Positions 18,115-22,016 of a DNA stretch of 28,119 bases are shown here, piece after piece. Below the pieces are notes generated by a model. The model saw nothing but the letters and a program-made list of their open reading frames with translations. It ran no database searches and was not told where the DNA came from. Made by a program: the position numbers and the translations under genes. Position 1 is the first letter of the stretch. Each line of letters opens with the position of its first letter. Source of the DNA: Minisyncoccota bacterium (GTDB lineage Bacteria; Patescibacteriota; Minisyncoccia; 2-02-FULL-40-12; GWA2-44-9); the NCBI GenBank assembly GCA_036516715.1, contig DATDZX010000043.1, forward strand, positions 1 to 28,119, given 5' to 3'.

Positions 18115-18594
18115 TTATAGCTTGTTGCCCATTATACTGTGTGCACAACAAATTGCAATAGCTAAGGCATCAGCCGCATCATCTGGATGAATTTTATCCT
18201 TAATTCCCAGCAAAAGTTTCACCATTTTCTGAACCTGATCCTTGTCTGCCCGGCCATAGCTTGAGACAGCCTGTTTTACCTGTAAAGGGGTATATTCATA
18301 GACTGGGATCTTAGCCAAACCAAGGGCTAAAAGGATGGAGCCTTTCGTCTCACTGACGGCTAGGGCCGTTTTTTTGTTTTTCATAAAGAATAGTTTTTCG
18401 ATTCCAGCGCAAGTCGGGGCATGAGAGACTATAATTTTTTGGATTTCCTGGTGGACATAAAGCATGTCCAGGGCTTTATCCTTAAACGAGGGCTCAATAA
18501 CCCCATAAGCCAAAGGAGAGAGCTTACTCTTATCATATTGGACGACCCCAAAGCCGACGCGGGTCGTGCCTGGATCAATGCCGAGAATAATCAT
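18115..18594 (-). CDS. ruvC: Holliday junction resolvase RuvC
   Basis: ILGIDPGTTRVGFG, IEKLFF, EYTPLQVKQAV.SYGRADK.QV and DDAADALAIA catalytic motifs. Confidence 0.97.
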   Translation of the reverse strand: MIILGIDPGTTRVGFGVVQYDKSKLSPLAYGVIEPSFKDKALDMLYVHQEIQKIIVSHAPTCAGIEKLFFMKNKKTALAVSETKGSILLALGLAKIPVYEYTPLQVKQAVSSYGRADKDQVQKMVKLLLGIKDKIHPDDAADALAIAICCAHSIMGNKL

Positions 18595-19100
18595 ACTGAT
18601 ACATTTAAGGCCACATCTTCCACGTCATCGTGATTATCAAGGGCCTCCAATAATTTATCTAATTTTGCTTCTGCCCCCTCTGGCACCTTCTCGATGGGTT
18701 GATGGAACATCCAACTGACACTTCCCAGAGAGACCATTTTAGCTTCATGGCTTGAAAGAATGGATTTAATTTCGGATATAGTCCTGTTTTTGTTATCCGT
18801 CACTCCTTTTATCCGCATTGCCACGCCACCTGGACCAAGAGCCTCAACGACAATCTCTTCCAGCTGAGCAGCCCCTTTTTCTGAAACCTTTTTTACAGCC
18901 CGCTCGATATTTTCATTGGGCATGTTCATCGCCCGGGCTTGCTCAATGGCCGAAGCGAGGGAGGGGTTTGCTTTTGGGTCAGCTCCTTTGCGGGCGGCAA
19001 GAGTGATGATTCGGCTTAATTTAGAAAAAACCTGGCCACGTTTTTGATCGGAGGCCGCCTTTTTGTGACGAATTTGAGACCAGCGCGAATGCCCACTCAT
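18591..19100 (-). CDS. yebC: YebC/PmpR-family protein, internally shortened (169 aa)
   Basis: MSGHSRWSQIRHKK, N..LA.AIEQAR..NMP.ENIERA, EA.GPGGVA, DNKNRT, and C-terminal L.ALDNHDDV.DV. Confidence 0.93.
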   Translation of the reverse strand: MSGHSRWSQIRHKKAASDQKRGQVFSKLSRIITLAARKGADPKANPSLASAIEQARAMNMPNENIERAVKKVSEKGAAQLEEIVVEALGPGGVAMRIKGVTDNKNRTISEIKSILSSHEAKMVSLGSVSWMFHQPIEKVPEGAEAKLDKLLEALDNHDDVEDVALNVSV

Positions 19101-19102
19101 AT

Positions 19103-20119
19103 TTAAATATCCAAAGTTTTCTTTGCGGGAAGATTTACGTGCTTATATCCATGCGACGTGAGAACTCTTCCTTTTGAGGTTCTAGCCAAAAACCCAACTC
19201 GGATAAGATACGGCTCATAGACCTCCTCTAAGGTGCTCTCTTCTTCGGAAATAGCGGCGGCAATTGATTTTATCCCTACCGGTCCGCCGTCGAATTTGTC
19301 GGCGATAGTGAAGAGGATTCTCCGATCAACCTCTTCAAGGCCATGCTCATCAATCTCAAGCATGGCCAAACTTTCTTGGGCAATTTTCCGGCTTATACTC
19401 TTGGCGTCTTTCATTTGAGCATAGTCTCTGACTCTTTTAAGGAGGCGGTTAGCCACTCGAGGCGTGAATCTTGAGGCATTAGCGATTGATTCTAGGGCCC
19501 CTTCCTCGATTGAGACCCTTAGCAATTTAGCGGACCGCTTTACAATCTCCCTGATTTCTTCTGGAGTGTAGAAATCAAGCCGGAAATTGACCCCAAAGCG
19601 GGATCGGAAAGGGGAGGAAAGCATGGAGATCTTGGTGGTGGCAGCAATCAAAGTAAATCTTGGTAGATCAATCTGGAGCATTTTGGCTGCCGTACCCTTG
19701 CCAATAACGATGTCCAGCTTATAGTTCTCCATTGCCGGATAAATAACTTCCTCCACATTTTTATTCAGCCGGTGAACTTCATCAACGAATAAAACGTCGC
19801 CATCGCTAAGCCCAGTAAGAATGGAGCCGACATCACCGGCTTTCTCTAGAGCGGTCCCGGAAGTGACCCTAAGATTTGCCCCTAATTCGTGGGCGATAAG
19901 GTGGGCGAGAGTGGTCTTGCCTAACCCCGAAGGACCGTGAAGGAGAATGTGCTCAATGGGCTCATTTCTCTTTTTAGCTGCCCCGATGATGACCTCAAGG
20001 TTTTGTCTTATCTTTGATTGACCGACGTACTCTTTAAAGTTCCTGGGCCGCAAGGCCTGATCAAGGACTTGATCATCTAAACCTTCAGAAGGCGAGGTAA
20101 TTTGAGGCTTGACATCCAT
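19103..20119 (-). CDS. ruvB: Holliday junction branch-migration ATPase RuvB
   Basis: LRP..F.EY.GQ, Walker A GPSGLGKTT, LFVDEVHRL, FTLIAATT, EEVYEPYL...G...RT.KGR. Confidence 0.98.
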   Translation of the reverse strand: MDVKPQITSPSEGLDDQVLDQALRPRNFKEYVGQSKIRQNLEVIIGAAKKRNEPIEHILLHGPSGLGKTTLAHLIAHELGANLRVTSGTALEKAGDVGSILTGLSDGDVLFVDEVHRLNKNVEEVIYPAMENYKLDIVIGKGTAAKMLQIDLPRFTLIAATTKISMLSSPFRSRFGVNFRLDFYTPEEIREIVKRSAKLLRVSIEEGALESIANASRFTPRVANRLLKRVRDYAQMKDAKSISRKIAQESLAMLEIDEHGLEEVDRRILFTIADKFDGGPVGIKSIAAAISEEESTLEEVYEPYLIRVGFLARTSKGRVLTSHGYKHVNLPAKKTLDI

Positions 20120-20137
20120 CTTTTAATTGATTAGAAT
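20109..20137 (+). promoter_or_regulatory. Near-consensus sigma70 promoter pointing into the ruvB-pilB intergenic region
   Basis: TTGACA(20109-20114)-17 nt-TAGAAT(20132-20137); the -35 overlaps the first ruvB codons on the opposite strand. Confidence 0.55.
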
Positions 20138-20192
20138 ATATACTGTAATTCCCGAAATAGAAGGGGATTTTCTTTCGGCTAAGCCTTACTTG

Positions 20193-20363
20193 GCGCGCCT
20201 TTCCAATCTGTAGGCAAATTGGGTTGTCGTCTAAAGACCTATGATCCAATCGGGATACTATCGAGTCGGATAGTTTGGTTTCGACTGGGCTACTCCTCAG
20301 AACTATCCTGCCCCACTTTTATTACTAAACTTGGGATCTTGCCTACAGATTGGAAAAGCGCGC
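20193..20363. ncRNA. Structured non-coding RNA candidate, 6S (ssrS)-like
   Basis: 171 nt closed by a 25-nt inverted repeat (24/25 matched), with an internal 8-bp helix ggatagtt/aactatcc and an asymmetric A/U-rich central region. Strand unresolved. Confidence 0.55.
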
Positions 20364-20369
20364 TTTTTG

Positions 20370-22016
20370 CTACCCGACAACTCTCTCAATTTCATCAAAT
20401 GAGGTAATACCCTCGATCATTTTCAGATAACCATCCTGAAGCATGGTAATCATGCCCTCCTGAACTGCCAATTTTTCAATATCAGATACGGCTGGATTCT
20501 GAAGGGTTAACTTTTCCATCGCTTCAGTCATGGCGAAGCCTTCAAAAACACCAATTCTCCCTGAATAGCCAGTCTGACCGCATTGGTCGCATGAGCTTGG
20601 CCCATAAACCAGAGTTGATTCAAAAACGTCTTTCTTAATCGCTGAAAGAGAAGATTGGACCTTGGCCAGTTGTTCAGGACTCAGCTTGCTTTCCTTTTTA
20701 CAATGAGGACACAGTTTTCTGACTAATCTTTGAGCCATAGCTAGCTTAATGCCCGAGGCGACAATATGCGGCTCGATTTTAAAGTTCACTAGCCTAGGCA
20801 CGGTCCCGGCGGCATCATTGGTGTGTAGTGTTGAAAGAACCAAGTGGCCGGTCAAGGCTGCCTGAAGGGCGATCTGGGCTGTTTCCCCGTCTCTTACCTC
20901 GCCGACTAATATAATGTCAGGGTCTTGGCGGACGATGGCTCTCAGACCGTCAGCAAAGGTATATTTTTTCTTCACATCGACTTGGGTTTGGGAGATGCCT
21001 TCGATGTGGTATTCGATGGGATCTTCGATGGTTATGATTTTGCTGTCAGGGCTATTTAAGGCCTCGATGCAGGCGTAGAGAGTTGTCGTTTTGCCTGAAC
21101 CAGTTGGGCCAGTAGTCAAGATGGCACCTGTTGGCTTTGAGAGTCTTTCTTTTAGGAGGGCCAACAATTCTGGCCTCATGCCTAAATCGTTAAGCTTCGT
21201 CCGAATGGTTCTTGGGTCGAGAAGTCTCATGACCAATGTTTCCCCGTACTCGCTTGGCAGAACCGAAACCCTAACCTCTATTGCCGATCCTTTGTGGTGA
21301 ATGGTGAACCTACCATCTTGGGGAGTCTTATGAATATTCAGCTGAAGGCCCGAGAGGACCTTGATCCGATTCAGAAGCTTCACATATGTTTCCGGGTCTA
21401 CAAAACCGATGTCTTGGAGAAGGCCATCTAAACGGTAGCGCAGGCGGACCTTGTTTTCTTGGGGCTCAAGATGGACATCGGAAGCCGAGGTTCTCAGGGC
21501 ACCAGCAATAACAATTTCTAGAAGCTTGGTAGTCGAAACCTTTTGGACCTGGGCCTGAAGATCCGACACGTCCTTTATCTCCGCCTCAAGCTTGGCCAGA
21601 TCTTCTTCCTCGATGTCGATAGAGCCGACCTTAAATGTTTCTTGGGTCTTCACCAGGGCGTATCTGCCCCAGGCTCTTTCCAGGGAGTGGGGAGAGGTAA
21701 TAATGAGGGTAGGAATATACCCCTGGGAAGAAAGGGAGGCCAAGACATCTTTGGCCTCTTTAAGTTCAGGGTCACAAGTGGCAATCGTTAGATTCTTGCC
21801 TGTTTTGAAAAGAACGGCCAGCAAGGCGCCCCTCGCCTCTGGCTCTGGGACTAAGGTTAAAGCCTCAACATCAATTGGAGCCGATGAAAGGTCGGAAAAA
21901 GGCAGCCCAAGCTTTTGGGCCAGAGCCCGGTATTGATCCTCGCTGCCTTGAAGGCGGATTTCAGAAAGTTTCTTTTCCAACTCCTCCTGAGTCTGAGAAG
22001 ATGATTGTGGCGGCAT
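20370..22016 (-). CDS. pilB: PilB/GspE-family type IV pilus/T2SS extension ATPase
   Basis: ASDVHLEP, RYRLDG, PQDGRF, Walker A GPTGSGKTT, TIEDPIEY, RQDPDIILVGEVRD, His box STLHTNDA, Zn motif CPHC...CDQC. Confidence 0.9.
   Translation of the reverse strand: MPPQSSSQTQEELEKKLSEIRLQGSEDQYRALAQKLGLPFSDLSSAPIDVEALTLVPEPEARGALLAVLFKTGKNLTIATCDPELKEAKDVLASLSSQGYIPTLIITSPHSLERAWGRYALVKTQETFKVGSIDIEEEDLAKLEAEIKDVSDLQAQVQKVSTTKLLEIVIAGALRTSASDVHLEPQENKVRLRYRLDGLLQDIGFVDPETYVKLLNRIKVLSGLQLNIHKTPQDGRFTIHHKGSAIEVRVSVLPSEYGETLVMRLLDPRTIRTKLNDLGMRPELLALLKERLSKPTGAILTTGPTGSGKTTTLYACIEALNSPDSKIITIEDPIEYHIEGISQTQVDVKKKYTFADGLRAIVRQDPDIILVGEVRDGETAQIALQAALTGHLVLSTLHTNDAAGTVPRLVNFKIEPHIVASGIKLAMAQRLVRKLCPHCKKESKLSPEQLAKVQSSLSAIKKDVFESTLVYGPSSCDQCGQTGYSGRIGVFEGFAMTEAMEKLTLQNPAVSDIEKLAVQEGMITMLQDGYLKMIEGITSFDEIERVVG

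Follow-up and report, generated by a model that had tools for sequence, protein, structure and literature searches.

Comparative genomics has uncovered orphan classes of structured noncoding RNA (ncRNA) such as raiA, OLE, HEARO and ROOL. The 6S RNA mimics promoter DNA by forming a continuous duplex, and a branch placed between its closing and distal stems would interrupt that duplex. Further points of comparison are cis-encoded antisense small RNAs such as GadY and the divergent transcription that starts from the shared -10 region of a symmetric bidirectional promoter. In the current study we examined an element that invites comparison with all of these. It lies in a 28,119-nucleotide stretch of DNA (contig DATDZX010000043.1, positions 1-28,119, assembly GCA_036516715.1; hereafter the window) from a Minisyncoccota bacterium of the Patescibacteria, where an inverted repeat occupies the 250-nt gap between ruvB and a pilB-like gene, both of which are encoded on the minus strand.

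We read the element as a new class of stand-alone noncoding RNA, encoded on the plus strand and antisense to the spacer between pilB and ruvB. Very probably it is a real structured RNA gene with its own promoter, and the family to which it belongs is uncatalogued. The arms of the inverted repeat (positions 20193-20217 and 20339-20363) are the longest such pair in the window. Each arm is 25 nt long, 24 of the 25 positions are paired (96% complementary), and 121 nt lie between them. An earlier note on this DNA had reported the 24 matching positions, and the inverted-repeat analysis bore this out. When the 250-nt gap was folded and compared with shuffled versions of itself, the z score was -6.7 for the minus strand and -6.6 for the plus strand, and none of the 200 shuffles was equally stable. 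The strongly folded core spans positions 20193-20363, or 171 nt.

The same note had left two identities open, a divergent 6S RNA or a new class, and comparison with known families favours the second. Searching the window with the Rfam 15 models at gathering and at relaxed thresholds returned only three tRNAs located elsewhere. No model matched either strand of a 401-nt region around the element at E<=10, and none matched any of 40 homologous loci at E<=1. The 6S RNA model RF00013 found nothing in the source genome, and the relaxed search that had been proposed for both strands of positions 20050-20450 likewise gave no match at E<=10. Among five genomes of the same family, the best RF00013 score was 13 bits at E = 0.8, which is not credible. 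These genomes carry RNase P RNA and transfer-messenger RNA at other places, which rules out both identities for the new RNA. Full-text searches of the literature about ncRNAs of Parcubacteria and other members of the candidate phyla radiation (CPR), about 6S RNA and about SRP (the signal recognition particle) turned up neither an account of this RNA nor any remark concerning SRP in Patescibacteria. On the strength of these comparisons, the class matches no catalogued family.

The source genome (520 kb, 72% complete) carries one copy of the element. Within its family, BLASTN revealed one homologue each in 56 of 62 genomes, with all 23 genera represented. From 54 aligned homologues we built a covariance model, R1, and from 45 more diverse sequences a broader model, R2. 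With R1, one locus per genome was found in 101 of the 105 genomes of the order, covering 4/4 families and 49/49 genera; the second ‘match’ is the same place on the opposite strand. Under strict filters, R1 detected the RNA in 86 or more of the 151 genomes that made up a class-wide sample. This figure is an underestimate, because three of five apparent negatives that were rechecked beside ruvB with the filters off hold diverged copies, one of which has a 75-nt insertion in the helix called P4 below. When R2 was applied to 151 genomes sampled across the phylum, its matches were confined to members of the same class and one genome of another class, such that the RNA is nearly absent from the other classes of Patescibacteria in this sample. 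A scan of public genome contigs for an exact pattern returned 85 contigs, all from metagenome-assembled genomes of Patescibacteria or Parcubacteria, and many of these are labelled Candidatus Yanofskybacteria. Many of the RNA-carrying public contigs are titled ‘uncultured Candidatus Saccharibacteria bacterium’, a label that is probably a placeholder or an error. Judged from these surveys, the RNA is conserved throughout its order and across much of its class (Parcubacteria/Paceibacteria).

The homologues support a single, detailed secondary structure. We derived it from RNAalifold on the 54 homologues, from pair counts on 45 class-wide sequences and from a scan of mutual information, with average product correction, on 94 distinct sequences. 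The three approaches are concordant, and the top-ranking mutual-information pairs correspond to the predicted helices. In the class-wide set, the proportion of paired cells is 93.6%, compared with 36-49% in slid controls, and compensatory changes occur in 49 of the 56 base pairs. Covariation across relatives, which had been suggested as a check, is therefore extensive. The closing stem P1 comprises 23-25 bp and has compensatory changes in 20 of 23 pairs. Its outer half covaries freely. The 13 bp on the inner side (AAUCUGUAGGCAA/UUGCCUACAGAUU) hardly vary, with covariation appearing in distant members. All seven pairs of P2 covary, and this hairpin contains the auuggguu/gauccaau helix noticed earlier, which is thus real. 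Helix P3 is formed by positions 20251-20257 and 20304-20310, where covariation pairs CGGGAUA with UAUCCUG. It is joined to P4 in one arm through a short helix in the middle and through internal loops that are conserved, with UAUC-GAG-UC on one side and UCAGAAC on the other. P4 spans positions 20268-20296 and carries tandem U-G/G-U pairs and a UUCG loop (20280-20283). Covariation in this helix pairs GGAUAGUUUGGU with ACUGGGCUA-UCC, with exchanges such as UA/CG, AU/GC and GC/AU. All four pairs of P5 covary, and this hairpin was also recovered by mutual information.

Two features of the structure first proposed for this element were not retained. The ggatagtt/aactatcc helix is not a conserved pairing, since covariation supports P3 and P4 in its place. 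Likewise, the alternative helices GGAUAGUU/AACUAUCC and ACUAUC/GAUAGU are not kept in relatives, whereas P4 covaries. A rod-shaped layout with an A/U-rich bubble had also been described. The conserved fold is instead a tight junction in which P2, the P3/P4 arm and P5 are set on P1 with 0-4 unpaired nt between helices, and the largest internal loop, measuring about 6-12 nt by 2-7 nt, is in the P3/P4 arm. No convincing pseudoknot emerged from mutual information on the 94 distinct sequences, which indicated only short extensions of P1 and P2.

Not all parts of this architecture are equally constrained. Some distant members lack P2, and one of them apparently lacks P5 as well, which leaves P1 and the P3/P4 arm as the invariant core. 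Sequence conservation is also concentrated in the inner part of P1 and in P3/P4, and P2, P5 and outer P1 only covary. Insertions of about 20-75 nt replace the P4 tetraloop in some lineages, so the UUCG loop is dispensable and P4 tolerates expansion.

Three independent lines of evidence, namely wobble pairs, model scores and a promoter, indicate that the structured strand is the plus strand. First, the G-U pairs 20252-20309 and 20277-20286 are invariant and would become A-C mismatches on the minus strand, and P4, with its run of U-G/G-U pairs, cannot form there at all. Second, R1 scores 150.9 bits on the plus strand of the window and 48.4 bits on the minus strand, and the same asymmetry is seen in every genome. 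Third, the TTGACA-17-TAGAAT promoter that had been recognized on the plus strand scores 11/12 against the sigma-70 consensus, and its counterparts are conserved in the homologue alignments. A promoter scoring at least 10/12 precedes P1 on this strand in 80 of 81 homologues; the score is at least 11/12 in 74 of them, and TTGACA is perfect in 80. In the opposite orientation, used as a control, the best promoter reaches only 6-8/12. The earlier note had observed that the single P1 mismatch, a C-A, would become a G-U pair there. This is correct, but it is an isolated case, and the wobble pairs of the family overwhelmingly favour the plus strand.

These data also bear on whether selection acts on the DNA rather than on an RNA. 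Arms of 25 bp inverted at the termini of an intergenic segment could belong to a repeat resembling a miniature inverted-repeat transposable element (MITE), to a palindrome bound by protein or to an oversized terminator that works in both directions. We consider such a DNA-level explanation extremely improbable. A single copy at the same locus, as seen in 101 of 105 genomes, refutes the MITE version and runs contrary to the many copies that would be expected of a mobile repeat. Moreover, helices that depend on G-U pairs and model scores that differ between strands reveal selection on RNA. The conserved promoter points inward, and a conserved interior of 120 nt is not needed for termination.

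Signals that might define the ends of the transcript are listed with the other features in Table 1. RNA polymerase would be expected to initiate near position 20144, about 7 nt past the -10 box, and to stop at P1 and the U-run that follows it, yielding a primary transcript of about 225 nt. The earlier report of a five-U tract directly after the stem was accurate, and at least four U residues occur within 8 nt after P1 in 53 of 81 homologues. P1 and its U-run presumably constitute an intrinsic terminator, although a simple terminator scan would not accept it, as the 121-nt ‘loop’ of P1 falls outside the recognised range. The leader is variable: among homologues, P1 begins 5-130 nt after the -10 box ends. 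In the window, the leader holds a small hairpin, AAUUCCC (20147-20153) with GGGGAUU (20163-20169), and a U-rich run at 20168-20175. The hairpin followed by UUUUCUUU looks like a terminator signal within the leader itself. A number of relatives, judged by eye and uncounted, have a similar AUCCCG...CGGGAUUUU hairpin, and others are almost leaderless. This hairpin could serve as an attenuator, as a protective structure at the 5′ end or as part of the region upstream of ruvB.

Table 1. Features of the RNA gene and its two neighbours (window coordinates).
Feature	Position	Strand	Details
Promoter, sigma-70 type	20109..20137	+	TTGACA 20109-20114, 17-nt spacer, TAGAAT 20132-20137
5′ leader, variable	20144..20192	+	putative start at about 20144, placed by reference to the -10 box
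P1 closing stem, 5′ arm	20193..20217	+	inner 13 nt AAUCUGUAGGCAA nearly invariant
P2 hairpin	20218..20250	+	AUUGGGUU pairs with GAUCCAAU; variable tip GUC-UAAA-GAC
P3/P4 arm	20251..20310	+	most conserved part
P5 hairpin	20312..20335	+	CCCA pairs with UGGG; variable extension
P1 closing stem, 3′ arm	20339..20363	+	UUGCCUACAGAUU...
U-tract UUUUU	20364..20368	+	directly 3′ of P1
ruvB	19103..20119	-	Pfam RuvB_N, AAA_lid_4, RuvB_C; divergent from the RNA gene
pilB-like T2SSE ATPase	20370..22016	-	Pfam T2SSE 2.6e-119; convergent with the RNA gene

Given a conserved fold and a strong promoter, the question becomes what such an RNA might do. The most likely role, in our view, is one in trans: the RNA would bind a conserved protein and serve as a stable scaffold or a regulator, and its transcription would have secondary, local effects on the neighbouring genes. 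To this overall reading we assign a probability of roughly 50%. The docking surface would be made up of the inner 13 bp of P1 together with the invariant loops and G-U pairs of P3/P4, and P2, P5 and outer P1 would serve only to maintain the structure. The leader, which overlaps the region upstream of ruvB, is the least conserved part of the gene, and P3/P4 and inner P1 are the most conserved; such a pattern would be expected of a surface that docks a protein more than of a simple antisense RNA. In addition, the RNA gene is wedged head-to-head with ruvB and tail-to-tail with pilB, and its transcription probably affects both. Possible routes include competition with the ruvB promoter, collision or pairing with transcripts that read through from pilB to ruvB, and termination in both directions at P1.

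One alternative is that the RNA works as a functional analogue of 6S RNA, that is, as an abundant RNA that binds the sigma-70 holoenzyme by means of an unusual multi-arm architecture. Its size (about 175-225 nt), long closing stem, consensus promoter, single copy and broad conservation all resemble those of ssrS, and no recognisable 6S RNA was found elsewhere in the five family genomes. In minimal variants, the loop between P3 and P4 (about 12 by 4-7 nt) and the P5 hairpin on the 3′ side loosely recall the 6S bubble with its 3′ hairpin. However, RF00013 and related models produced nothing at E<=10 in the 401-nt region or in the 40 homologous loci, and a junction with 0-4 unpaired nt leaves no open bubble of about 15 nt. 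From what is established for 6S RNA, a branched junction would break the duplex that imitates a promoter. We therefore regard this alternative as doubtful. The more specific proposal of the earlier note, a 6S RNA on the minus strand that is co-transcribed with pilB, fails in three respects: RF00013 does not match, the junction is tight and multi-armed, and the structured strand is the plus strand.

The genomic setting speaks for a local function. Among class-wide loci, about 28 of 30 have a frame of RuvB size (320-365 amino acids) on the opposite strand, head-to-head beside the RNA, and about 27 of 30 have an opposite-strand frame of PilB size (roughly 450-610 amino acids) placed tail-to-tail. 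These frames were judged by size and position, and the proteins themselves were identified only in the window, by Pfam, and in five other genomes searched with RuvB. Even the match outside the class adjoins a RuvB-sized frame, of 361 amino acids. In the window, the signals of the three genes are packed closely together. The start codon of ruvB (20117-20119, minus strand) is just past the -35 hexamer and inside the spacer of the RNA promoter, and the pilB stop codon on the other strand, at position 20370, is just past the U-tract. Most members of the family likewise have the start codon of ruvB under the -35 hexamer or directly next to it. No Shine-Dalgarno sequence is visible for ruvB, and in 48 of 80 loci the gap holds no conserved sigma-70 promoter for that gene. 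Read backwards, the -10 region of the RNA promoter in the window is TATATT, located about 15 nt before the ruvB ATG, and this suggests a shared, symmetric two-way promoter region, with only a very short leader on ruvB. Because signals overlap at either end of the RNA gene, the gene order would be frozen passively, and the same overlap lends plausibility to local effects on the two neighbours. A sense/antisense link between pilB and ruvB, which had been raised earlier, is conceivable, given that the RNA gene runs fully antisense to the spacer, with its -35 box reaching over the start of ruvB.

Taken to its conclusion, this evidence would make the RNA a regulator or insulator that acts in cis on pilB and on ruvB-yebC-ruvC, such that the key product is strong antisense transcription together with the P1 hairpin rather than the folded molecule. 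The RNA promoter would compete with or mirror a weak ruvB promoter, convergence and complementarity would reduce read-through from pilB to ruvB, and P1 would terminate transcription both ways. This explanation draws on the fixed position between ruvB- and pilB-sized frames (about 28/30 loci) and beside a RuvB-sized frame at the out-of-class match, on the placement of the -35 box over or next to the ruvB start in most family members, on the 48 of 80 loci that lack a ruvB promoter, and on a ruvB gene with no visible Shine-Dalgarno sequence. The 5′ flank of P1 is also rich in A, so the minus strand likewise reads as a stem with a short U-run. Nevertheless, antisense interference needs no elaborate invariant fold, and here conservation peaks in P3/P4, with its invariant G-U pairs and loops, and covariation extends to 49 of 56 pairs. 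The leader over the upstream region of ruvB is the least conserved part (5-130 nt), and the fixed position can be explained passively if overlapping signals make rearrangement harmful. For these reasons we consider an exclusively local function possible, but rather unlikely.

Several observations weigh against the preferred view of the RNA as a trans-acting partner of a conserved protein. Strict linkage to ruvB across a deep clade, and again at the out-of-class match, would be unusual for an RNA that acts purely in trans, and a local role would fit at least as well. Apart from ruvB and pilB, no conserved gene nearby hints at a partner, and the candidate partners Ro60/TROVE, CsrA and Ffh are absent from the family genomes searched. 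The start, the end, the abundance and even the expression of the RNA are read from sequence signals, and the U-tract is weak or absent in about one third of the homologues. Furthermore, a perfect stem of 25 bp is a potential substrate for RNase III, so that the mature RNA may not be identical with the primary transcript.

Specific partners and targets were also considered. A Y RNA bound by Ro60 was set aside, as the TROVE domain (PF05731) occurs in none of the five family genomes. A sponge of the CsrB/RsmZ type was rejected on similar grounds, with CsrA (PF02599) found in 0/5 family genomes and the GGA triplets of the RNA located inside helices. A search of the source genome for targets complementary to the invariant segments of P1 or P4 gave nothing beyond chance.

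The search for Ffh led to an observation that extends beyond this RNA. The SRP RNA models RF00169 and RF01854 had no match in the region or in the five family genomes. Neither PF02978, the M domain of Ffh, nor PF00448, the GTPase domain of SRP54, gave a real match in any of these five genomes, four of which are near complete, and the same protein-domain search was positive in 14 of 14 control genomes. PF02978 was also found in none of the 151 class-sampled genomes and in none of the 151 phylum-sampled genomes. FtsY was not found in the family genomes searched. Using tblastn with E. coli Ffh and a motif scan, we found nothing in the source genome, and tblastn with the same query and the DT[AS]GR motif found nothing in a relative whose genome is a single contig of 615,149 bp and 100% complete. 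A back-translated DTAGRL pattern was hardly more frequent than its control pattern, at 27 places versus about 16 control matches, and none of the six places inspected was in a plausible gene. Positive controls were recovered as expected, with SecY in 4/4 near-complete genomes, RuvA in 61/62 and RuvB also found. Across the 62 family genomes, E. coli Ffh had one match only, at the end of contig C64 (1498-1881) in a bin that is 75% complete. This match is a 128-amino-acid, SRP54-N-like frame that is cut by the contig end and has 29% identity to residues 6-127 of E. coli Ffh; the fragment is archaeal-looking and probably a contaminant. Ffh, FtsY and SRP RNA thus appear to be lacking in these bacteria, as far as profile, similarity and motif searches can tell. 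We know of no report that Patescibacteria lack SRP. If confirmed, its absence would be of wide interest in itself, and it would be remarkable if true for Patescibacteria.

An apparent lack of SRP RNA raises the question of whether the new RNA is a highly divergent form of it (4.5S RNA or scRNA), given that none is detectable in these genomes and that the RNA has a hairpin-rich shape closed by a stem. However, the partner Ffh was not found by profile or tblastn searches, and there is no GNAR-capped helix resembling domain IV; P4 is capped by UUCG, in whose place some lineages have insertions. We consider this identity highly implausible. A bolder proposal is that the RNA is a subunit of a ribonucleoprotein that is specific to Paceibacteria and performs a core cellular job, rather than regulating particular genes. 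In its boldest form, which stems from the failure to detect SRP, the RNA would be part of machinery standing in for a universal function that has been lost. Another form, suggested by the strict linkage to ruvB and the branched shape of the RNA, would make it a decoy or guide for Holliday-junction proteins. Both forms are long shots.

The genes near the RNA have some unusual characteristics of their own. Downstream of ruvB are yebC and then ruvC (18115-20119, minus strand), which is unlike the usual ruvAB operon. The ruvA gene is on another contig (C26:8594-8809) and in relatives lies at unrelated coordinates. RuvA is encoded elsewhere in the genome in 61 of 62 family genomes, and the idea that a missing RuvA has been replaced by the RNA can be ruled out. 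The yebC frame has only 169 amino acids, with Pfam matching 55 of the 160 positions that make up the second and third domains. Its end overlaps the start of ruvC by 4 nt, and yebC may be truncated or frameshifted.

Class-wide bacterial RNA classes that have their own promoter and a covarying fold are rare, and they have repeatedly proved to be components of ribonucleoproteins or unusual regulators. The hosts in this instance, the Paceibacteria or Parcubacteria, are ultra-small and mostly uncultured CPR bacteria with genomes of about 0.5-1 Mb, where presumably hardly anything is kept that is not needed. For annotators, the RNA provides a model for a recurrent ‘empty’ gap. RNA biologists gain a compact fold of about 170 nt with candidate docking surfaces, and CPR biologists gain a handle on the expression of ruvB and a pilus ATPase gene.

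It remains to place the RNA among the systems with which this report began. In its genetic organization it is much like 6S RNA (SsrS), being a stand-alone, single-copy gene that measures about 180 nt, is driven by a strong sigma-70 promoter and has its two ends paired in a long closing stem, with wide conservation within the lineage and a stable genomic position. The particulars of size (171-nt core, about 225 nt with the leader), promoter (11/12) and gene number agree with this description. However, it has no covariance-model match to 6S RNA, and its tight three- or four-way junction differs from a rod with a large open bubble. Y RNAs of the YrlA type, which are bound by Ro60/Rsr, likewise have a long end stem with a sequence-conserved docking segment and a multi-arm, cloverleaf-like cap. 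In contrast to these, the new RNA matches no Y-RNA family in Rfam, lacks T-loop and D-loop signatures and is not encoded beside rsr. With GadY and bidirectional promoters it shares a location opposite the spacer of two co-oriented genes, a promoter that overlaps the start of a divergent gene and a reversed -10 box that reads TATATT for ruvB. Those systems need no elaborate conserved fold, whereas here the overlapping leader is least conserved and the fold most conserved. Finally, like raiA, OLE, HEARO and ROOL, the RNA is defined by covariation, conservation and a lack of coding potential, and those classes also had no assigned function when they were discovered. It departs from them in fold and sequence, with no match in Rfam, in its restriction to Paceibacteria and in being so unusually locked head-to-head to ruvB.

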